64,000 nt of DNA. Origin: an uncultured Candidatus Micrarchaeota archaeon (GTDB taxonomy: Archaea; Micrarchaeota; Micrarchaeia; Micrarchaeales; CABMGC01). The stretch lies in contig CAWHXT010000005.1 in NCBI GenBank assembly GCA_963833485.1, forward strand, positions 21,330 to 85,329. Direction: 5' to 3'. Below, piece by piece: positions 19,742 through 59,275 of the stretch (position 1 is the stretch's first letter; each line of letters opens with the position of its first letter). Under the pieces are notes generated by a model, which searched no databases, was not told where the DNA came from, and worked only from the letters and a program-made list of their open reading frames with translations. Both the position numbers and the translations under genes were made by a program.

Positions 19742-21364
19742 TTACTGTACTATTGCCTCACTTTGCTCTCTCACGAACTGCTGCAGATAGAACCTGCTTC
19801 CAGTCCCTTTTCCTGTCAGGCCGCTGCCCTTCCAGCCTACGAATGTGTGAAATCCTACTATGGCTCCGGTGGTCGCGCTTGTCTCTCTGTTTATGTATAA
19901 CACTCCGGCTTGTATCTTGTTGGTGAAATCCCTGATCTCGCTCTTCTTCTTGCTGTAGAATCCTGCTGTAAGGCCGTACTCCACGTCGTTCGCCTTAGCA
20001 AGCGCATCCTGCAAGTTCTTGTAGGTTGTTATCACCAGCAGCGGAACGAACAGCTCCTCATGGAAGAGTTTGTTTGTGTGGTCGATCTCTACTAGCGTCG
20101 GTTCTACATATATTCCCTTCAGGCCAGTCTGCACCACCTTCCCACCATATATCACCTTGCCGTTCCTGTTCGCCTCTTCTACAGCGTACTTGTACTTGTC
20201 AAGGGCACTGGCGCTTATCAACGGACCCATGTAATTCTCCTTCTTGAGTGGATCTCCGATCTTGAAAGACCTCACCTTCTCAGCAAGCTTGCTTATGAAT
20301 TCCTCCTTTACGGAGTCGTGCACGTAAACCCTCGAGCAGGCACTGCATTTCTGCCCAGCGAAACCGAAAGCGGCGCTTGCTATGCCACTAGCAGCCTTAT
20401 CAAGGTCCGCGTATTTAGAGACGATCACCGGATTCTTGCCTCCCATCTCCATCACGAACGCCTTCTGCTGGCCAGTTTCGTAGCTTTTCAGTACCATGCT
20501 TACTCCTGTGGCTCTGGAGCCAGTGAAAGCTATGCCGCTCACCTTCCTGTTTACAACTAGCTCGTCGCCAACTTCTGAGCCGCTTCCAGATACATAGTTG
20601 AACACACCATCGGGCAATCCTGCCTCCTTGAATACCTCATATATCTTTAAGCCAGTTAGCATCGTCATGTTGTCTGTGGACGATGGCTTGAACACCACAG
20701 TGTTTCCGGTTATGAGCGCTCCGCAGCTCATGCCAGCGGATATCGATATTGGAAAGTTGAATGGAGCTATGACCCCAAATACTCCGTACGGTTTCATCAC
20801 TATCTTGGCTTTCTCTTCCTGCCCTGGAGCTCCTTGGAAGCCAGCCTGAACCTTAGCCGTGCTTCCAGATAACTTGCTCTTCCTGACATATCCTTTGTTC
20901 TTCTCCATGTCAAGCGCATAGTAGTTCAGGAAATCTATCGCTTCGTCGACTTCTCCTATGGACTCGTATCTTGTTTTACCGTTTTCGATGCTGAGTATTG
21001 CCCCTATGGTGAACTTTTCTCTAGAGAAGATGCTGGCTGCCTTCCTCATTATCTTAACTCTTTCTCTGTAGTCGCTCATTCCCCACTGCTCAAAAGCAGC
21101 ATAAGCCGCGTCTATCGCCTGCTTTGCATTATCCCTCGTCCCCTTCTGGAACCTGCCTATTATCATGCCTCCATCTATCGGAGAGTACTCCACTGACTCT
21201 GATTCTGAGTAAACCTCCTTGCCGTTTATGTAAATCGGAAACTTTTTCCCTAATATTTCTTTCTTGACTTCGTCTACGGCATTGTCGAAGAGCTCATCAA
21301 ACTTTGACTCCTCGTCGTTCTCAAGGAACTTTCTATAGGTAAACTCGTTGCTAAACTCCATCAA
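19742..21364 (-). CDS. Aldehyde dehydrogenase family; likely 1-pyrroline-5-carboxylate (glutamate semialdehyde) dehydrogenase
   Basis: 540 aa. 'VMEMGGKNP' and catalytic Cys in 'FGFAGQKCSACSR'. Length and N-terminal extension match RocA/PruA-type P5CDH. Confidence 0.8.
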   Translation of the reverse strand: MMEFSNEFTYRKFLENDEESKFDELFDNAVDEVKKEILGKKFPIYINGKEVYSESESVEYSPIDGGMIIGRFQKGTRDNAKQAIDAAYAAFEQWGMSDYRERVKIMRKAASIFSREKFTIGAILSIENGKTRYESIGEVDEAIDFLNYYALDMEKNKGYVRKSKLSGSTAKVQAGFQGAPGQEEKAKIVMKPYGVFGVIAPFNFPISISAGMSCGALITGNTVVFKPSSTDNMTMLTGLKIYEVFKEAGLPDGVFNYVSGSGSEVGDELVVNRKVSGIAFTGSRATGVSMVLKSYETGQQKAFVMEMGGKNPVIVSKYADLDKAASGIASAAFGFAGQKCSACSRVYVHDSVKEEFISKLAEKVRSFKIGDPLKKENYMGPLISASALDKYKYAVEEANRNGKVIYGGKVVQTGLKGIYVEPTLVEIDHTNKLFHEELFVPLLVITTYKNLQDALAKANDVEYGLTAGFYSKKKSEIRDFTNKIQAGVLYINRETSATTGAIVGFHTFVGWKGSGLTGKGTGSRFYLQQFVREQSEAIVQ

Positions 21365-30714: not shown

Positions 30715-32661
30715 TCAGCTTATTTTATTCATTATAGCTCTTGCGAGTACGAATAGGTTAAGTGGGAGGGTAGAAAGGCTTTGAATTTGTGCGTTTACGT
30801 TAGGGGCGTTCTGCGAATTTATGCTAGGAACTTGTGGTGGGACGGTCGTAGTAGGAGAGCCGGTTATTGAATAAGTAGCGTTAGTCATATTGAAAAGTGC
30901 TCCAACTGATTTTCCTGTTGACGAATCTGTGATATTAAGGTACCATGGTCCTGGGGAGATGTTGGACTCGGTTTGGAATGTACCAGAGACGTATCCATAT
31001 GCGTCGGAGAAGGAATCTGGAGTGAAAGTTATTGTGTTGTTGTTCTTAACATTGATCAAAGACAGCACTGCACTAGAATATGGAGAAACACAGGCCTCCC
31101 ACGAGAGATAGCTCCCAATTTCGTAGCCACCATCGACTCCAGGTCCAACTGAAGTGATGTTCAGCCATGGAGGATTGCTGCACGCAAAACTGCTAGTGCT
31201 GCTTTGTGGAAGTACTATCTTTGAAGGCACGCGGCCAGTGTTGTGATTCCTTCCTAGAGGAGCCTCTGTTAATACATAGCCATCAAAGTTTGCCATTTCT
31301 TCAGAATGGTTCGCCCCGTTAGAGTAGTAGATCACCCAAAGGTCATAATTCTTATAAGATCCTATTTTGGTACTACTATTCACAGGACAGTTGAAGAATA
31401 GTTGCAAGTTATTAGTGCCTCTATGTAAAGATATGTTGACAGCTGTGAAGTTGTTTGCTGAAGGGTAGCCAGTGTAAGAGTAGGTGTAATATGCAAATGG
31501 AGAGATGCACGCCAGGCCGTATATGCTGTCTCCGTTTTTCAGGTTGCCAAAGCTGAAGTTTGCCCTGAGAGTTCCTGTAAGGTTTAACATAGGACGTGAG
31601 CAGTAGCTATAGTTCGTTTCCAAGTTTGGTATTCCTGAGATGTAATATGAACCGCAATAGCTTGGAAGAAGAGCGCTCAAATTAAGAAGGGGTCCTGGAA
31701 GAGCAGTAATTTCACTATCCGGCAATGGCTGCGAGCTTAGGGAAGTTTCATTGATTATAGTATTAAAGGATGTTTTGTTTTGACCAACTGAGATTGTGAT
31801 ATTAGAAGTTGAGGTAAGAAGTACGTTGTTATAAAGGTTTGAGAAACAGCCAGAAAACTTTCCTCCTATATTGAATCCCTTTGGACCATAATAGTAATAA
31901 TCTGAAGTAATGTTTACTATGGAGTTTATCGGTATGTACCCGCTTAGATTGCCTTTCACCAGGACGCATGGAGAACCCTTGTATGCGCTTTCAGAGACAG
32001 AACTGATTGTAAGGTTGATATCCTTCAATATTGTACTGTTCGAGAAATTTGAAGTATACTTGTATGGATTCAGCCCACTGCTGTACGAAGATGTTGCATT
32101 TCCATATACTCCAAGTGTTTTGTTATCAATGCAGCCAACGCTGCTCATGTTTTGCTGCGTTGTAGAAGAAGCAGCATTAGAGAACATCCCTAACAGGCCT
32201 TCAGACGCACCACCATTTTGAAACAGGTCGCTGCAAACATAACTAATTGAGTTGTTCCTTATATCTGTGAAATTGATGTTCAATGAATAGCTGAAGCTAG
32301 AAAGCTGCAGGTTTATTGTCGTCCCAAAGAATGTCCTAGAAACATTACCATTCTTATCTAGACTTACATTGAAAGGTATGCTTAGCTTAAAGGAGGTTAT
32401 GCCGCTTTTTATGTCTAAGTTTGAGTTGCCGCTGTAATTAACAAAGATCTGTTTTGTTGGATTTTGTTTGCTCTGCTGTGCGATTAGATTAATTAAAGTT
32501 GCAAGATTCAGCTGCTTGTGCGTTAGTAGATATTTAAAGAGCACATTTTGAGAAGCGGGTTGATATAGAAAGAAGTAAAGTGCAGCAATGATTATCAAAG
32601 CAATAGCGATTGTTGCAATTTTTATCTTTGTAGGGATCATGCAACAGCCAAATAAAAACAA
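30715..32661 (-). CDS. Large secreted or surface protein, Asn/Ser/Thr-rich with many N-x-S/T sequons and an N-terminal TM anchor
   Basis: N-terminal hydrophobic segment 'IATIAIALIIIAALYFFL'. Dozens of N-x-S/T sequons. Paralogous to the product of 44999-46423. Confidence 0.6.
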   Translation of the reverse strand: MFLFGCCMIPTKIKIATIAIALIIIAALYFFLYQPASQNVLFKYLLTHKQLNLATLINLIAQQSKQNPTKQIFVNYSGNSNLDIKSGITSFKLSIPFNVSLDKNGNVSRTFFGTTINLQLSSFSYSLNINFTDIRNNSISYVCSDLFQNGGASEGLLGMFSNAASSTTQQNMSSVGCIDNKTLGVYGNATSSYSSGLNPYKYTSNFSNSTILKDINLTISSVSESAYKGSPCVLVKGNLSGYIPINSIVNITSDYYYYGPKGFNIGGKFSGCFSNLYNNVLLTSTSNITISVGQNKTSFNTIINETSLSSQPLPDSEITALPGPLLNLSALLPSYCGSYYISGIPNLETNYSYCSRPMLNLTGTLRANFSFGNLKNGDSIYGLACISPFAYYTYSYTGYPSANNFTAVNISLHRGTNNLQLFFNCPVNSSTKIGSYKNYDLWVIYYSNGANHSEEMANFDGYVLTEAPLGRNHNTGRVPSKIVLPQSSTSSFACSNPPWLNITSVGPGVDGGYEIGSYLSWEACVSPYSSAVLSLINVKNNNTITFTPDSFSDAYGYVSGTFQTESNISPGPWYLNITDSSTGKSVGALFNMTNATYSITGSPTTTVPPQVPSINSQNAPNVNAQIQSLSTLPLNLFVLARAIMNKIS

Positions 32662-44666: not shown

Positions 44667-45002
44667 TTGGCTATGGCGATGCGACCGGAAAATTTCTACA
44701 GAGTAGCGAAGATGAGAAAGATTTTAGATTATGTAGTCTACGCTTCTGCTGTATTCGACTTTGCGATCGCGGCTGTGACGCTGATATCGATAAACTTGAA
44801 AGGGGTTGATCTAAGCAACATACAGACCCTGCTGAACTATGGGCTTAGCATAATAGTGGTTCTGACTATAGTTATATTCGCTTCGATGATGGTGCTAAGG
44901 CACTACGACAGAATCATGGATAAGTTTACTAAGGTCGGATTTGACATTAAGTATGGTAAGAGAAGGAGAAGGCTGCAGATGGAAAGGCGCAGAAGTTTTT
45001 AG
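44667..45002 (+). CDS. Small membrane protein
   Basis: 111 aa with two hydrophobic helices and a basic C-terminus. Confidence 0.4.
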   Translation: MAMAMRPENFYRVAKMRKILDYVVYASAVFDFAIAAVTLISINLKGVDLSNIQTLLNYGLSIIVVLTIVIFASMMVLRHYDRIMDKFTKVGFDIKYGKRRRRLQMERRRSF

Positions 45003-46423
45003 ACGGCTTTTAATGTGAGGGTTGCAACCTTTACCGATAGCCAGGGGTTCGTGCTGCTTGGGGCACTGCTGTTTGTAGTATAGTTAAGAAACAGCGAACC
45101 GGTGAATGTAGATCCTTGCGTGATGCTGCTGATTGGACTGCCGCTTGCACCAAAGCATTTCAGATTACTAATAAAGTCCTCGCTGCCACTATTCATATAG
45201 AAAGAAGTGGTATTCAAAGAGCTTGCGACCTCTGAAGTTGCTTCACCATACGTATTCAGTAATACTACTGCATTACCAGGATTTGGATGCCCATAATTGT
45301 TAGAAGTTGCAACGCATCCAAGACCTATGTTGTACATCGATGAACCAGTGCTCTCCCCAAATGAGAACGATAGATTGCCATTAGTCGCTAGTGTAGGAGC
45401 TTGACATAAGAATCCAGGGGCAGCAATGCACGTAGTTCCGCTTCCGTAGCCGGTGTTGCTTATGAGCTGCGTGTAGTTGATAACCTTTCCTGGAAGCGAG
45501 GTCACCTCTTGGTCTGTTAGCGGCTTTCCTATGGAAGTTTCATTAGCTGATAGCTCTGCTCCTATTGAAGCCTTTTCACCAGTCTGCCCACTAGATATGG
45601 CCACGCTACCTTTGCCTGATACTATAAGAGGTACGTAGTACGAATCTGATACGCAGGTTGTAAAGGTGCCTGATATTGGAGCAACATTAACTGAAGTGCT
45701 ACCTCCTGTAAGTGCGCTAAGCATCTTAGGGGTCCCGCTCACCGTACCGTTTAATAGAAGACAGCTGTTTCCGTTCTTTGTTGTCGGAGTCTCTGAAGTA
45801 ATAGTTATATTGATACCATCTAAAATCGAAGTGGTGTTAAATAGGGATGACACACCGGAAGACTGCCCAGAAGCACTTTCGTATTTGGTCAGATCACTTT
45901 GAACTAGGCATGTGACTGTATTGTTGTAAGACCCTTCGTTAAATGGAGCGCATACGTATGTCTTCCCACTAGCGTTTATGGCGGTTACGTTAAAGGCGAG
46001 AGAGCTTCCAACACTTAATAGGGATGGTATTGTAAAGGATGTATAAGATCTGGAGTCGTTGCCAATTCTTTGGTAAATAAAACTGAAAGGTAGAGGCAGG
46101 CTGAAACTTGAACTGCCTTGAGTTATCGTGACGTTTAAGGAACCTGTGTAGCTTACATTCTCCTGTGAAACTTGCCCTTCGACCTGCGAGATGTCGCTTG
46201 TGAATTGTGATATAGACAAAGACTTATTTATAGGAAGAACCGCCTCAAGCTTGCTTTTCTGCGGCGCTAAAACGAACATGTACAGCACCAAAGCTATGAT
46301 CACGATGACAACTATTCCCCCTACTATTTTCATGATACCACCGCCTGAACGCTTTGGCTGCGGTGCGCCTCCCTGCTGCATTTTAGGCTGTTGAGGAGGA
46401 ACTTGTGGCCTTTGTGTGCTCAT
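44999..46423 (-). CDS. Secreted or surface protein, paralogue of the product of 30715-32661
   Basis: Gln/Pro-rich N-terminus, then TM 'IVGGIVVIVIIALVLYMFVL'. Collinear blocks shared with the 648-aa protein, e.g. 'NETSIGKPLTDQEVTSLPG' vs 'NETSLSSQPLPDSEITALPG'. Confidence 0.6.
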   Translation of the reverse strand: MSTQRPQVPPQQPKMQQGGAPQPKRSGGGIMKIVGGIVVIVIIALVLYMFVLAPQKSKLEAVLPINKSLSISQFTSDISQVEGQVSQENVSYTGSLNVTITQGSSSFSLPLPFSFIYQRIGNDSRSYTSFTIPSLLSVGSSLAFNVTAINASGKTYVCAPFNEGSYNNTVTCLVQSDLTKYESASGQSSGVSSLFNTTSILDGINITITSETPTTKNGNSCLLLNGTVSGTPKMLSALTGGSTSVNVAPISGTFTTCVSDSYYVPLIVSGKGSVAISSGQTGEKASIGAELSANETSIGKPLTDQEVTSLPGKVINYTQLISNTGYGSGTTCIAAPGFLCQAPTLATNGNLSFSFGESTGSSMYNIGLGCVATSNNYGHPNPGNAVVLLNTYGEATSEVASSLNTTSFYMNSGSEDFISNLKCFGASGSPISSITQGSTFTGSLFLNYTTNSSAPSSTNPWLSVKVATLTLKAV

Positions 46424-46626: not shown

Positions 46627-47878
46627 ATGCCTCAGGTTAAGTACAGCGTGAAAGACAAGAGTGAGAGGTTACTAGTGCTAGCCGTAGACATCGACAACGA
46701 CCTCTACAAGAAGACGAAGATATCTGGGCCCGTCATGGGAAGGGTTCAGAACCTCAACGCTGCGAACGAGCTCATGCTCGCAGATCCGGAGGACACAGAT
46801 GGCAACACGATGTTCCAGGCGGTAAAGCTCTACGACCAACTGAAGAAGGATGGATACTCTGTCAACCTCGCAACGATCACTGGCTCGGAGAACGAGGGGT
46901 ACGACGCGGACAGGGAGATAGCAAGGCAACTTGAGCTGGTGCTTGCCACCTACAAGACCGACGCATGCGTATTCGTCACTGATGGTGCGAGCGACGAGCG
47001 AGTCCTGCCGCTCATACCAGTCAAGAGTGAAGATAAACAGCATGAACATGATAACGATAAAGCAGGCCCAGCAGCTCGAAAACACTTATTTCGTCATACT
47101 AGAGAAGCTCAAGGAGCCGCACTACGCAAGGATCGTCTTCGGCATACCTGCGTTGATAATACTTCTGTTCGCCGTGAGCTATGCGCTAGGTGGCGGATGG
47201 CTGCCGCCTGTGCTGTTGGTAGGCCTTTACCTTGCGCTCAAGGGATTCGGGTTAGAGGAAAGCTTCCTTGGATCGTTCAGGGGCTTCGGTTTCAGTATGG
47301 ACAAGCTCAGCTTCGTGTTCTACATGAGTGGGATAATATTCTTCCTAGCCAGCATACTCATCGCATACGGAGATTATTCCGCGCAGATCGGGCTAGGATC
47401 AATATCAATCATAACATGGGCGTACACTGTCGAGGGCTTCATGCTGCTGCTTCCGGTAGTGCTCATACTGTTCATTCTTGGAAGAATGCTTGAGGTCAGG
47501 GGAAGCAAGTACCTGTTCAGGAGCTTCAAGTATGGATCATACATCGGTTCATCGATAATCATGTGGGTTCTGATGTATTCGCTGGTCTCTTGGATAATAG
47601 GGCAGATATACTTCTACCAGCTTCTGGAGTTTGCCATAGTCGCGATAGCCATAGGGATAACAGTGACAACCGCCACGAACTTGTTGAGAAGGAGAGTGCT
47701 TCGCACCAAGAGGATGAAGGACAAGCTTGTAGTCAACGAGCTTGGCGCGCTTCTAGGAAAAGTGAGCGGCGTTGACATAAGGAGAGGCATGATCATAATA
47801 AACACAAGCTTTGGAAACGCAATCAGATACAATGTTGATAGGATAGTTGACGTGAGCGACAAGGTTGTCATAAGATAG
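46627..47878 (+). pseudogene. DUF373-family archaeal membrane protein, frame disrupted as read
   Basis: N-terminal 'LVLAVDIDNDL', 'LADPEDTDGN' and 'VFVTDGASDERVLPLI'. A +1 shift at the CC at 47017-47018 continues as 'QSRVKINSMNMITIKQAQQLENTY' plus a TM domain. 1252 nt, i.e. 1251+1. Confidence 0.7.
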
Positions 47879-47983
47879 GTGCTCAACTCTTGAAATAAGG
47901 CCGGTTTTTGCTTAAAAACGCTGAGGTAGTGAATCCTTAAATAGAAGAAAAAAGAAAGATTAATAGGTCACAGGGGGTTTTCA

Positions 47984-50325
47984 ATGAGAGAGAGCTCAAC
48001 AGTCACTATTTTTGTTTCTTCCATATTAGTGATAACTCTACTTTCCTTATTTTTACATAGTTTTTACGCTGAAGGCAACCAGGCCTCGAACAGCACGGCG
48101 AACTTTACTGCTTACTCGGCGCCTGAGCTCTCTTTAACGTCAACAACCACAACATCGACAGTGATTTCGACAACTACAACGTTGCACGAATGCGACGAGG
48201 GCGATGCAGGCGAACACAACCCGCATTGCATTTCAACAACCTCAACTTCGATTCCTACTTCAATATCATCCATTTCTACATCGACAGCTACAACTTCAAC
48301 CGTGGCCTCGACAACCACTACATTAAATGAGTGTGACGAAGGTAACGCGGGCGAAAATAACCATCATTGTACCTCAACAAGCAGCATTTCTACAACAACT
48401 TCGACTATTCCGAGCACTTCAACCACCACAATACTTCCTTCGACAACCACTACGATAACTCCAACAACTTCAACAACCGTTCTTACAACCTCCACAACGA
48501 CTTCAACAGTAAGTTCGTCCACTACTACTTTGAATGAATGTGACCAAGGCGATGCAGGCGAATATAATTCTCATTGCACTTCAACAACTAGCATTCCTTC
48601 AACAACTTCAACCATCCCGAGTACCACAACCACTTCAATAATTCCTACAACTACAACTACCATTCCAACAACTACGACAATCTCTACTACAACCACAACA
48701 ATTCCTTCAACGACTACAACGACGATATCTGCAACAACTACGACAATAATTCCTACAACTAGTACCTCAACTTCAACAAGCACAATTTCTTCAACATCTA
48801 CTACAACCTTGCCGCCCACTACGACAATAGGCCAATCGTCTTTCGGGGGAGGAAATCCTGACTCTGGAGGTGGATTGCCTGAAGTCATAACAACAGAAAC
48901 TACGGCAGTTTCTACAGTCCCTACAACGACCATTTTCTCCGTCAATCCACTAACAAACCTTAACTCTGCACTTGGATCCTCCTGCGGCAACTACTCTATA
49001 AACGAGACAGACCCAGCGCTTGTCAACTTTGCCAATGCTAACGCGTTCTTCGGAGTCGTAGCCAACACAGCCAAGCTCACTCCAGTTAGGATATGCGTAA
49101 CAAATGTGACACTTTCAACTCCAGGAGGTGGCACAGGTCAGAACAAATTAGTAGCTCTCAACATCAGCGTCACTCCAGACGTAGGAATAACCACGAATGG
49201 CAGCATAGGATACAGCTGCAGCATAAACGCTAACGACATATCGGCCTACAAACTTAGCTCTGGGGCGTGGAGGGCATTGCGCAAAACTCGCTCCTTCAGA
49301 ATGATCAGATCATTGTAGGAGGAAGCGTTCCTACCATAGGCGCTGGGGTAGTATTATGGCCAAGCATAGGCGCCACCTCAACAAGCAGCTCTACAACCTC
49401 AACTACTTCTACAGCATCCACAACATCTACAACCACAATCAGTTCTACAACCTCATCTACTTCAGCTACAACATCTTCCTCTTCGACAGCTTCAACCACT
49501 TCCACAACAACATCCACATCTACTTCAACTATAACATCGACATCCACTTCTACCTCACTTTCTTCTACTACTTCTTCTATTTCATCAACCACGTTCACAT
49601 CAACATCAACTTCAACCAGCACCTCAAGCAGCAGCTCAACTAGCATAGTGTCTTCAACTACATCTACTCCGACGACATCGCCAACAACAATACAGCCTAG
49701 TGGTGGAGGTGGAGGAGGAGGCGGAAGTCAAGGTGGAGGAGGTGTCCATAGACCTACAATCCAACAACTCGCAAACGGTTGCTATGCTGTCAACAATGTA
49801 ACCCAATTGGACACTTTCAACGTTACATTTTCTGGAGTGAAACAGGACGTTACAGAGAATTTCATCTCACCAACACAGGCAGGGATATCAGTAAATAGTA
49901 ATCCTTACACGCTGCAACTGAATGGCACTGCAAATGTTTCGAGCAACGCTACCTCTAATTTCGTTGTAAAGCTCCTGAATATCAGTTACCTGCCGCTTGA
50001 GAATACGATACAACTGAGCATGTGCCCGGTATTAAAACCAGGGATAACGACAACTATCACCACTACTACCTCAGTAGCAACTACCAAACCGACCACTACG
50101 TCTGTTAAGACTACCACGACAGTCAATGTTGTTAATAATACACGCCTTGTGGTGCAGGCGCAGGCTCCGCCATTACAAGAGACCAGCTTAATAGAGCTCT
50201 TCATGCCATTTGAGCTTTACATTATGATAGGAGTATTCATCATAATCGTCGCGATTGGCACAATAGTTTACACTCTATTAAATAGTAAAGGGAATGCTCC
50301 GCCTCCTGTCGAGTCTTCCTCTTAA
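47984..50325 (+). CDS. Thr/Ser-rich (mucin-like) cell-surface protein with signal peptide and C-terminal 'PFELY'+TM anchor; two ORFs as read
   Basis: Signal-like N-terminus, 3x 'ECD(E/Q)G(D/N)AGE.N.HC' repeats, long poly-Thr/Ser linkers, a Gly run, and a C-terminal TM. The ORFs 47984-49318 and 49267-50325 differ by -1 near the G-run at 49262-49275. 2342 nt, i.e. 2343-1. Confidence 0.65.
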
Positions 50326-50351
50326 AAATATAGAAAAAGTCAAAAAAGAAC

Positions 50352-51794
50352 TCACTTTTCACGTGAAGGGCTCTTTGTCTTAATAACATATGTATAGACC
50401 AATGAGAGCGTTCCAGCCACTACGATGAAAGTCCCCATCATTCCATAGAGTTCGAATGGAAGGAACAAAACTACAACAGCTGACGTCGATAGTGGTGGCA
50501 ACGTAGGCACCTGTGGCGCTACTGTGCGTATTGGAACTGTGGTTGTTGGCTGAGTTGGCAGTGTCGTTACGACTGTTGATGGCGTAGGTGTCGTGCTGCT
50601 TGAAGTAGTGTTGGTTGAAGTGGTCACAGTTGTTGAAGGAGCGGTGCTGCCAGATGTGGAAACTGTAGAGCTTGTGCTGCTTCCGCCTCCAGCAGAAGTT
50701 TGACCGCCAACTCCACCGGCGCTGCTTGCGACTACGACAGGTGAAGATGAAGGTGCTGGTGTTGGATTCACTGTGACTAAAGTGCTTGCTGACGGAGTCA
50801 CGGAGACTCCTGAACTATCCATTACCGCTACGGTGAATGTATCTGATGTTGATGTTGAAACTGACGGTGCGGATATCGTGCAAGTGTAAGTTCCATTTGA
50901 AGCTCCTGTTGTAAGGCAGTCAGATGCGGTCGAAGTCAATGAACCCTCAATTGAGCCTGTCCACGTCAACGTGTATGGTGGTGTTCTCTGCTCTATATCT
51001 GCAGTCAGCGTTTCCGTCTGACCTGAAGTTATTGTTGAAGCAGAGGCTCCGAGCGTTGCTGTAGGAGCTGGATTGACATGTAATACTATTAGTAGCCCAC
51101 TTCCTAAGTTGATTGCGTCACCAGGATAAGTTACACGCATTCTCGCTTTTCCTGAACCCGGATCTGTATAAGTCACTGAGCATGATCCCGAAGAAAGCGT
51201 GCATGTGTTGCCAGAAGGGAAGGAACCTACGTTGTCCTTTGTAGTGAAGGTCACTGACCCTGTAGGTGCAGATCCTGTTACGGTTGCAGTGAAGGTTACG
51301 GTGGCTCCTGCAGAAAATGTAGATAATCCGTCTAATGAAGTTGCAGATGTTACTAATGGGTCGACTGTCACGGTGAATGGGCTAGTTATCGCTTCTGTTG
51401 TTGTGTTTCCGTCAGAGACTACAAGAAAATAGGAATAAGTGCCCCAAGCAGCCGGAGTATCACTCAAAATCAATCCGCTGCCGCCGCTAACAGGCAAGCT
51501 ACTTGCTATGTCGTTAGTGCCTACAGTGTTATAATACCATTGCTCAACGCATGTGCTGCATGTGTAGTCACCTGAACCTCCAGACGCAGTTGCAAACAGT
51601 GAAATTGAGTTAGTAACAGTGATTTCTGAAGGAGTTACGGCTGCTGAGATGGTTATTGGTGTCACCTGAGCATACACGACACCTTGTGAGCGGATGAAGA
51701 AAAGCAATATCAGGACGCCTATTGTCATCTTTGATAAAAAGATCAACTTATCTTTAACCAATCTATTTTCCTTCATATCCTCACCCATCCCCAA
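50352..51794 (-). CDS. Cell-surface protein with Ig-like repeats, Thr/Ser-rich stalk and C-terminal 'PFELY'+TM anchor
   Basis: N-terminal signal/TM 'MTIGVLILLFFI', repeated 'VT(V/F)T..' beta-rich modules, a T/S-rich stalk, and the ending 'LFLPFELYGMMGTFIVVAGTLSLVYTYVIKTKSPSREK'. Confidence 0.65.
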   Translation of the reverse strand: MGMGEDMKENRLVKDKLIFLSKMTIGVLILLFFIRSQGVVYAQVTPITISAAVTPSEITVTNSISLFATASGGSGDYTCSTCVEQWYYNTVGTNDIASSLPVSGGSGLILSDTPAAWGTYSYFLVVSDGNTTTEAITSPFTVTVDPLVTSATSLDGLSTFSAGATVTFTATVTGSAPTGSVTFTTKDNVGSFPSGNTCTLSSGSCSVTYTDPGSGKARMRVTYPGDAINLGSGLLIVLHVNPAPTATLGASASTITSGQTETLTADIEQRTPPYTLTWTGSIEGSLTSTASDCLTTGASNGTYTCTISAPSVSTSTSDTFTVAVMDSSGVSVTPSASTLVTVNPTPAPSSSPVVVASSAGGVGGQTSAGGGSSTSSTVSTSGSTAPSTTVTTSTNTTSSSTTPTPSTVVTTLPTQPTTTVPIRTVAPQVPTLPPLSTSAVVVLFLPFELYGMMGTFIVVAGTLSLVYTYVIKTKSPSREK

Positions 51795-52032
51795 TTATAG
51801 TTTCCGTCTTTTCTGGTATATAAACTTAATTGTGGAACAGTGACGCTTGTCTATGTCTCGTCGAAACATGATCGCCTAACATTAACTCATTTCATAATAT
51901 TATTAAACATATCGCTTCTCTCTGTAATAACGGAAGACATGCTTCCTCCCTCTCTGTGCTCAATACATCGCTGAGAAACGGAGGATAAGAAACCTTATTA
52001 AAAGCTAAAATTGTATTTAAATAAGTGAGAAA

Positions 52033-52461
52033 ATGCAAGTTTTAATGGAACAACGACTCTCGAAAATGTACCAACAGTCGGTAGAAGTAGTAATGAAGTA
52101 TGCACCTCTCCAAGTCTCCTCTGGTCCTGCAGAGTTTTCTGGGGATATAGGAACTAAGATTGATAAGGGAGAAGTGACAAAAATTATTGACAAGGAACTG
52201 AAGGAGAGGCAGGAGTTGGAGCCACGGGACGTTTATAATGCTGCAATTACCGCGATGGAGCAGTTTGTTGAAGAGAAGGATTGGGAGAAAACGGGTAAAG
52301 AGCTCTATGAAATTTGCTTCCCGACAGAGCTGGAGCTTGAGCTGACTACCGCCGCGACGACCGCAGTGCTACGAACTGCAAAAGGGGAGGAAGAGGAAAA
52401 GAAACTAAGACGAAGCCAGGAGCAGGAGCAACCCAGAGGAGGTGGGTTAGAGATAGATTAG
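52033..52461 (+). CDS. Hypothetical acidic protein
   Basis: 142-aa ORF, Glu-rich, with no motif. Confidence 0.4.
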   Translation: MQVLMEQRLSKMYQQSVEVVMKYAPLQVSSGPAEFSGDIGTKIDKGEVTKIIDKELKERQELEPRDVYNAAITAMEQFVEEKDWEKTGKELYEICFPTELELELTTAATTAVLRTAKGEEEEKKLRRSQEQEQPRGGGLEID

Positions 52462-52546
52462 AATTCTTCCTATTTTGACAGAGAGATATTGAGATAAGGT
52501 TTAAATACTTGCTCAGATATAAAAATCTCTATACAGAAATGGACTT

Positions 52547-52848: not shown

Positions 52849-53149
52849 ATGGCTGAAGAATGTAAAGATCCGAAGTGCGCCATACACGGCGATGTGAAGG
52901 TTAGAGGAGCTGAATTCTCGGCAAGGTAGTCAGCGACAGGGCAAAGAAGACCGCGACAGTTGATTAGGGACTATACACTCTACATATACAAGTACGAGAG
53001 ATATCTGAGGAAGAGGTCCAGGATACTTGCGCATAACCCAGACTGCATTGCAGCGAAGGTTGGCGACACTGTGTAAGATTTCTGAGTCAAGGAAGCTGAG
53101 CAAGAGGAAGGCTTTTGTGATAACAAGCGTGGTGAAGAGGGCAAGCTAG
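52849..53149 (+). CDS. rps17: 30S ribosomal protein S17 (uS17), three frame disruptions as read
   Basis: The pieces 'MAEECKDPKCAIHGDVKVRGAEFS', 'GKVVSDRAKKTATVD', 'RDYTLYIYKYERYLRKRSRILAHNPDCIAAKVGDTV' and 'KISESRKLSKRKAFVITSVVKRAS' lie in alternating frames. Shifts fall near 52918-52921 (-1), 52964-52965 (+1) and 53074 (+1). Confidence 0.8.
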
Positions 53150-53158
53150 GTGCTATTT

Positions 53159-53558
53159 ATGAAAGGATTATCGTCAAGGATATCTAAAGACACTCGTGCC
53201 TGGAGCCGTGCTTGCGTGCGCGGACAACAGCGGAGCGATAGAGTTCAGAATGATACACATCATAGGTAAGGGCGGTAGGCATGGTGGCCTGGCGAGTGCG
53301 GGTGTCGGCGACATAATAAGCGCGAGCGTGAGAAAGGGGACCCCGACGTATCTCAAGAAGCCTGTGCGCGTCGTGATAATCAGGCAAAGGGACGAGATAA
53401 GGAGGGCAAACAACACCAGAGTCAGGTTCGAGGACAATGCCGCGGTGATGGTCAACGACGAGAACCTTCCGATAGGCACCGAGGTCAAGGGCGCTATGGC
53501 AAGGGAGGTCGTAGAGAGGTTCGCGAAGGTGGCTGGAATAGCCTCGAGAATTGTGTGA
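53159..53558 (+). CDS. rpl14: 50S ribosomal protein L14 (uL14), one frame disruption as read
   Basis: 'MKGLSSRISK' (ATG 53159) is followed by a +1 shift at about 53186-53189 into 'TLVPGAVLACADNSGA...'. 400 nt, i.e. 399+1, giving 132 aa. Confidence 0.9.
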
Positions 53559-59159: not shown

Positions 59160-59275
59160 GTCAAACGGCCATAGGGACGGGGAAACGCCCGAACACATTC
59201 CGAACTCGGAAGCTAAGCCTGTCCACGATGCGAAATACTACTCAACAGAGTGGGAAAGCGCATTGTCGTTTGGCA
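59160..59275 (+). rRNA. rrf: 5S ribosomal RNA
   Basis: Terminal helix gtcaaac/gtttggc and the conserved core 'ccgaacacattccgaactcggaagctaagcc'. No 16S or 23S gene is adjacent. Confidence 0.85.

Follow-up and report, generated by a model that had tools for sequence, protein, structure and literature searches.

A 64,000-nucleotide stretch of a contig from an uncultured Candidatus Micrarchaeota archaeon (positions 21,330 to 85,329 of CAWHXT010000005.1, GenBank assembly GCA_963833485.1; hereafter, the window) contains two convergent genes for surface proteins that share a C-terminal module, consisting of the motif LFxPFELY with its flanking residues, a transmembrane (TM) helix, and a short tail. 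The gene on the plus strand extends from 47984 to 50325 and the gene on the minus strand from 50352 to 51776, with the module-encoding ends facing each other. All positions are given in window numbering, and the motif and enzyme scans of this genome cover these 64 kb of a contig that measures at least 458 kb. A first interpretation made without database searches (the sequence-only reading) had proposed convergent Thr-rich surface proteins with only 26 nt between their C-terminal ends, and this was confirmed from the open reading frames (ORFs) as well as from the raw sequence. The span that it reported, 50197–50468, fits the positions of LFMPFELY (50197–50220, plus strand) and LFLPFELY (50445–50468, minus strand). 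The A-rich spacer between the two stop codons (50326–50351) reads on the minus strand as T5/T6 runs, which appear to resemble an archaeal terminator.

Architecture of the two surface proteins

The plus-strand gene is split by a 1-bp frameshift near 49262–49275, at a GGGG run. Its 5' part (47984–49318) encodes a signal peptide, Thr-rich linkers, three Cys-loop repeats, and a globular segment, while its 3' part (49267–50325), which corresponds to the database protein P0011, encodes a Ser/Thr-rich linker, a Gly run, a beta-rich globular segment, a Thr-rich stalk, and the module, but no signal peptide of its own. At the junction (49258–49275), the frame changes from ...AYKLSSGAW to ...GIAQNSLLQNDQIIVGG. 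We read the two parts as a single ORF of approximately 780 amino acids. By inspection only, a signal peptide was assigned to 47984–48070 (MRESS...HSFYA), so that the joined protein starts with MRESSTVTIFVSSILVITLLSLFLHSFYA followed by EG. The linkers of the 5' part consist of 27% Thr. The Cys-loop repeats (48188–48229, 48329–48370, and 48536–48577), each 14 residues long, follow the pattern EC(D/D/D)(E/E/Q)G(D/N/D)AGExNxHC; they lie in the N-terminal half, each flanked by Thr-rich linkers, have no family match, and could form small disulfide-bonded or metal-binding knobs. The beta-rich globular segment of the 3' part carries 7 N-x-S/T sequons and is followed by the final Thr-rich stalk (50041–50166) and the module (50167–50322, beginning PPLQETSLIE-LFMPFELY). 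Within the latter, the TM helix FELY...LLNS spans 50209–50286, and the tail KGNAPPPVESSS (50287–50322; written NSKGNAPPPVESSS in the test for a basic cluster) is neutral, containing a single Lys and a single Glu. The complete C-terminal end of this ORF is ...SLIELFMPFELYIMIGVFIIIVAIGTIVYTLLNSKGNAPPPVESSS (more fully, ...PPLQETSLIELFMPFELYIMIGVFIIIVAIGTIVYTLLNSKGNAPPPVESSS); as the assembly is rich in indels, the tail might be misread, and its sequence is therefore treated with caution.

The minus-strand protein is encoded by an ORF spanning 50352–51794 and ending in ...AVVVLFLPFELYGMMGTFIVVAGTLSLVYTYVIKTKSPSREK (more fully, ...PPLSTSAVVVLFLPFELYGMMGTFIVVAGTLSLVYTYVIKTKSPSREK), for which the database call (P0001, 474 amino acids) starts with MKENR at 51776. 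A signal peptide, again assigned by inspection only, occupies 51669–51776 and ends in ...GVVYA, with QV following; the protein thus starts with MKENRLVKDKLIFLSKMTIGVLILLFFIRSQGVVYA and continues with QV. Its beta-rich ectodomain includes a single Ig-like Big_3_5 domain (51108–51323; PF16640, E 5.5e-9) and is followed by a stalk of 90 residues rich in Ser, Thr, Pro, and Gly (50499–50768). The module (50355–50498, beginning PPLSTSAVVV-LFLPFELY) comprises the TM segment FELYGMMGTFIVVAGTLSLVYTYVI (50382–50456) and the tail KTKSPSREK (50355–50381), which has a net charge of +3 that is Lys-based, with the basic residues dispersed. When the full-length protein was used as a query, the candidates were mostly Thr-rich, and the homologues recovered represented generic Big_3_5 proteins only, most of which, in other lineages, are devoid of a C-terminal anchor. 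One Big_3_5 repeat protein from another lineage (P0004, from ENA) has an S/T-rich linker near its C-terminus, then IPEFP, a TM segment, and finally RRSALRK; this tail looks PEF-type, yet none of the NCBIfam CTERM models matches it at E ≤ 10.

Both proteins thus show the layout of type I membrane proteins, with a signal peptide, extracellular domains, a single C-terminal TM segment, and a tail. Thr and Ser together account for 34–44% of the residues across the proteins and for 40–45% just upstream of the modules. Searches of the PDB sequences with both ectodomains returned nothing significant, and a Pfam scan detected no S-layer domain in either protein. Structure prediction from single sequences with AlphaFold 2 (AF2) gave poor models (mean predicted local distance difference test score, pLDDT, of 42 and 45), the sole usable part being a helix in P0011 (residues 188–213, pLDDT approximately 92) that begins directly after Pro187. 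The best explanation of this architecture is that both are cell-surface glycoproteins of type I, held by a C-terminal anchor, in a Micrarchaeota (DPANN) archaeon.

The frameshift in the plus-strand gene raises the question of whether this copy is decaying into a pseudogene, or whether assembly errors distort the locus; a single functional protein would then carry the module, and the module family would be illusory. An independently assembled Logan contig (L009, 1.9 kb, run ERR11594402), which is 100% identical over 48610–50522, contains this frameshift too. In addition, the assembly carries 1-bp indels, with the extra bases placed at short homopolymers by alignment to a relative, that split or fuse many essential genes: those for the ribosomal proteins S17 (52858–53146), L14 (N-terminus, 53187–53260), L24/S4e (approximately 53927), and L5 (approximately 54845), as well as the DUF373 gene (approximately 47017), E3 (39452/39490), and lipoyl synthase (42880/42966). 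L24 runs into S4e without a stop codon, and S17 needs at least 2 frame changes. That essential genes share the same defect, however, argues for an indel-rich assembly rather than for real pseudogenes, and sequencing or assembly error is the simpler account. Furthermore, long open frames are kept in both halves of the plus-strand gene, and its module is complete and can be read in frame up to the stop codon. The frameshift most likely is therefore a 1-bp indel like those in several essential genes of the assembly, and we regard decay or distortion of the locus as unlikely.

A conserved C-terminal module

In both proteins, the module follows the order PPL-x8-LFxPFELY-xMxGxFI...VYT, with the TM helix and the short tail. 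The sequence-only reading had described it as F-(M/L)-P-F-E-L-Y and one TM helix downstream of a Thr/Ser-rich stalk, which the ORFs and a BLASTP comparison bear out for both proteins; its description of a short polar or basic tail is accurate for the minus-strand protein, while the tail of the plus-strand protein is neutral, not basic. The module is the sole similarity that BLASTP detects between the two proteins. It extends over 38 residues, from PPL to VYT[YL][VL], of which 17 are identical (45%) and 28 positive (74%), with a composition-adjusted E-value of 1e-9. The homology starts at PPL, 13 residues upstream of the Pro, and also takes in the helix (GxFI, VYT), and LFxPFELY is identical in both, these being two sequences only. 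From PFELY to the stop codon, there are 30 residues in the minus-strand protein and 34 in the plus-strand protein, and the best 19-residue Kyte-Doolittle means are 1.95 and 2.68, respectively.

A chance resemblance of two hydrophobic C-termini could be suspected, since TM segments are alike in composition. Yet the E-value already takes composition into account, and the back-translated pattern F-x-P-F-E-L-Y-x-M-x-G, which occurs twice in the window, is found 0 times in 100 shuffles. How chance matches do look was seen with the strict motif pattern in 185,579 GTDB species genomes, where the 8 matches obtained equal the chance expectation and none of the 8 represents a C-terminal TM module. Chance is thus an extremely improbable source of the shared module. 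It is nearly as hard to credit that the similarity is trivial, stemming from a recent duplication or from gene conversion between the adjacent inverted 3' ends, even though the modules face each other across 26 nt in a geometry that would allow inverted-repeat recombination. At the DNA level, the 36 codons starting at LF agree at only 58 of 108 positions (54%), different codons are used for 9 of the 14 residues that are identical there, and the best local alignment, with mismatches and gaps, covers 46 nt. These values largely refute a recent inverted duplication or gene-conversion tract and instead indicate that the module is old and has been kept at the protein level. As judged from the sequences, it is best explained as an old lineage-specific unit that was joined to two otherwise unrelated ectodomains.

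The module is rare. No further PFELY-like C-terminus occurs in the six frames of the window. A hidden Markov model (HMM) built from the two modules retrieved only the plus-strand protein of the window itself from 1.84 billion representative proteins at E ≤ 0.001, a search of limited power in which a third paralogue of equal divergence would score near the threshold; P0001 is absent from the matches, presumably as it does not represent its cluster. A word-indexed search with the module alignment gave no candidates but missed the window's own proteins as well and is uninformative for so short a query. With a looser pattern, no copy of the module was present among the 120 matches listed from metagenome contigs, nor was any found in collections of viral contigs, phages, and plasmids. 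Within the window, two large proteins rich in Ser, Thr, and Asn and with an N-terminal hydrophobic segment (44999–46423 and 30715–32661, both on the minus strand) have no C-terminal anchor, no PFELY motif, and no Pfam match, which implies that the module is not universal among the predicted surface proteins of this organism.

Comparison with C-terminal sorting signals

The sequence-only reading had likened the tripartite layout to that of archaeosortase substrates. Accordingly, the module may be viewed as a new type of C-terminal sorting signal (PFELY-CTERM), in which a membrane-embedded enzyme would cleave at or near P-F-E after Sec export; the helix would be removed and a lipid or another anchor attached, the enzyme being either an archaeosortase/exosortase homologue or some other intramembrane protease. 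We consider this possible but doubtful. Haft described eight attributes that define tripartite C-terminal sorting domains (10.1101/2023.06.07.544157), four of which the modules or their carriers display: closeness to the C-terminus (attribute 1) and a hydrophobic segment of TM length (attribute 4) in both modules, an N-terminal signal peptide in both proteins, by inspection only (attribute 6), and carriers that are otherwise unrelated, albeit as one pair only (attribute 7). Moreover, the motif abuts the helix without a spacer, a Thr/Ser-rich linker lies upstream of it, and, as the chief argument for this reading, the 8-residue LFxPFELY has been kept despite saturated synonymous change and the divergence of everything else. 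In contrast, attribute 5, a terminal cluster of 2–5 basic residues, mostly Arg, is absent from the plus-strand tail and diffuse in the minus-strand tail. As to the remaining three attributes (multiple copies per genome, an invariant signature, and homologues in other lineages that lack the signal or carry a different one), the data comprise two adjacent copies, one pair of sequences whose homology extends beyond the signature on both sides, and generic Big_3_5 homologues including P0004. Also weighing against a sorting signal, only two copies are present in the 64-kb window, in adjacent genes, and no relative of the module appeared in the 1.84e9 representatives, the GTDB species genomes, or the metagenome matches listed.

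When full proteins and isolated tails were compared with the NCBIfam/Pfam CTERM models (PGF-CTERM TIGR04126, PEFG-CTERM TIGR04296, PEP-CTERM TIGR02595, PFE-CTERM NF050011, Loki-/Heimdall-CTERM, and LPXTG), there was no match at E ≤ 10, although idealised control tails were detected with 53.8 (PGF), 37.1 (PEP), 32.2 (PEFG), and 51.9 (LPXTG) bits. The curated PFE-CTERM model (NF050011.2) exists in NCBIfam, while our literature search found no mention of the term. Grafting LPFELY onto a PEP-type helix with an RRRRKA tail yielded 21.7 bits on PFE_CTERM, as compared to approximately 13 bits for helix and tail alone and a cutoff of 24. The motif by itself thus adds approximately 8–9 bits and is compatible with the PFE-CTERM class, while the whole domain is not a member of it. 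The existence of this class speaks for a processed signal, as does the tail of P0004 described above.

With regard to the individual systems, PGF-CTERM, likewise found on secreted surface glycoproteins, resembles the module in its Thr-rich linker, a short Pro-containing motif on a C-terminal TM helix, and a short cytoplasmic tail (PMC6098224; 10.1101/2023.06.07.544157). However, the motif here is P-F-E-L-Y rather than P-G-F, an Arg cluster is lacking, and there is no score on TIGR04126, compared to 53.8 bits for the idealised PGF tail. Furthermore, no ArtA was found in the window, and the organism belongs to the DPANN archaea instead of being a halophile or methanogen. PEF/PEFG-CTERM (TIGR04296) and PFE-CTERM (NF050011.2) likewise place Pro, Phe, and Glu where the helix begins, but the native modules give no reportable score on these models, the chimera falls short of the 24-bit cutoff, the helix here is rich in Ile, Val, and Phe, and the tail is Lys-based in the minus-strand protein and neutral in the plus-strand protein. 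Permutation of PGF to PFG blocks processing by ArtA (PMC6098224), which indicates that the order of residues matters within a system.

The search for a processing enzyme gave no support either. Dedicated low-copy sorting systems usually keep their enzyme close by (10.1101/2023.06.07.544157), but none of the multi-TM ORFs of the 64-kb window encodes an archaeosortase, a rhomboid, or a CPBP-like protein; they correspond to ABC-2 permeases, EamA, TauE, an EpsG/PMT-like protein, DUF373, and DUF6114, none of which is protease-like. DUF373 was also weighed as a possible dedicated enzyme but dismissed, since relatives that lack these surface-protein genes have it conserved in this position as well. 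A 2018 review placed archaeosortases in a subset of Euryarchaeota (PMC6098224), and our literature search found no link of archaeosortases to Micrarchaeota. Every independent test run for a sorting signal thus came out negative. Of the proposed archaeosortase-type layout, the arrangement of stalk, motif, helix, and tail stands, while the step from there to a sorting signal found no model match or independent support and is not established by the present results. It is somewhat less probable still that LFxPFELY with its helix represents the first DPANN C-terminal sorting signal; a membrane endopeptidase or transpeptidase with its gene elsewhere in the genome would then recognise it, cleave at the motif, and re-anchor or release surface proteins involved in host contact.

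Genomic setting and a probable retained membrane anchor

The gene pair lies between a DUF373 membrane-protein gene (46627–47878, plus strand, frameshift-split at approximately 47017) and the Rpp29-S17-L14... ribosomal operon. The ribosomal protein S5 of the window is 82% identical to its best matches among proteins of "Candidatus Micrarchaeota archaeon" and 95% identical to one NCBI protein; the relative GCA_030042175.1 likewise shows 95% S5 identity. At 90% identity, 8 proteins of the window are singletons among approximately 15 billion proteins. In related Micrarchaeota (three metagenome-assembled genomes with an S5 identity of 82% and two relatives at a greater distance), the interval from DUF373, its conserved left border, to Rpp29 is occupied by different, unrelated genes. 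This interval corresponds to 47879–52546 in the window, 3359–4325 in L130–L132, 1993–4651 in L135, and 4265–4609 in L137; it holds two small ORFs, or a methyltransferase with small ORFs, or one small ORF in the relatives, compared to two large surface-protein genes and a 142-residue acidic ORF here. The presence of other genes at the syntenic site identifies the pair as lineage-specific cargo of a variable islet, while its base composition shows no sign of foreign origin. Beyond the islet, a 5S rRNA gene (59161–59274, plus strand; Rfam, 66 bits) lies just 3' of the genes for S5 and a Nudix protein (isopentenyl-diphosphate isomerase-like), and, like in related Micrarchaeota, the L30-L15 part has been displaced from the ribosomal cluster to another place.

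Considering these results together, we lean toward the interpretation that the shared module serves as a stop-transfer anchor specific to this lineage, carried by two surface proteins that are stalked and probably glycosylated. A Sec-type signal peptide would direct the export of both, and their beta-rich, Ig-like ectodomains would be held off the membrane by the long Thr/Ser/Pro stalk, which is probably glycosylated. The 38-residue module would then act as the stop-transfer anchor and be retained in the mature protein, with its Pro capping the helix, the F-E-L-Y turn placed at the outer membrane interface, where the aromatic residues would form a belt and the Glu would point toward the surface, and the short tail remaining cytoplasmic. 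The juxtamembrane half of the module would be kept by selection, perhaps for packing on a partner that both proteins share, for instance the S-layer or a further membrane protein.

Several lines of evidence support a retained anchor. The homology spans the whole module instead of a signature of 3–5 residues; the plus-strand tail is neutral and the minus-strand tail diffusely basic, with no Arg cluster in either; and no CTERM model matched, while the controls were detected and no sortase-like enzyme is encoded in the window. It is further supported by the AF2 helix of P0011 together with the signal peptide, stalk, and single C-terminal hydrophobic segment of both proteins, and by the fact that the module was seen nowhere else and its genes lie in a variable islet with other cargo in relatives. 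A precedent is provided by the Sulfolobales, which are devoid of archaeosortases and in which SlaB is anchored by a retained C-terminal helix (PMC6098224), and, for Micrarchaeota, one proposal is that the S-layer may be anchored by a separate stalk protein that carries a TM domain (10.1101/2021.04.28.441871). The stalk subunit SlaB of Sulfolobus is built like the module proteins, with a signal peptide, a stalk of extended form, and one helix at the C-terminus, and neither organism is known to have an archaeosortase. However, there is no sequence similarity between them, and, unlike SlaB, two unrelated ectodomains here carry one conserved anchor module with an exact juxtamembrane motif.

It should be noted that some observations fit a retained anchor less well. 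LFxPFELY is exactly conserved although the codons of most identical residues differ (9 of 14) and the ectodomains have no detectable similarity; as judged from these sequences, such conservation appears to exceed the need of a plain hydrophobic anchor and to be as expected of a recognition motif. Moreover, the placement of the motif directly against the helix, with a Thr-rich linker before it, is the one seen in PGF-, PEP-, and CGP-CTERM (10.1101/2023.06.07.544157), and the grafted LPFELY raised the PFE_CTERM score from approximately 13 to 21.7 bits, with a cutoff of 24. Two sequences from one window do not separate retention from cleavage.

Micrarchaeota are tiny symbionts that depend on contact with their host. 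If the module is a plain anchor, the finding is routine and adds two strain-specific stalked surface proteins, possibly adhesins, in a variable islet. If it were a processed signal, a claim that the present data do not justify, sortase-like surface anchoring would be extended to DPANN archaea, and the motif would provide a sequence handle for tracing the enzyme as well as all surface-exposed proteins that take part in the host interaction. The module thereby bears on how Micrarchaeota anchor their surface proteins and their S-layer (10.1101/2021.04.28.441871).

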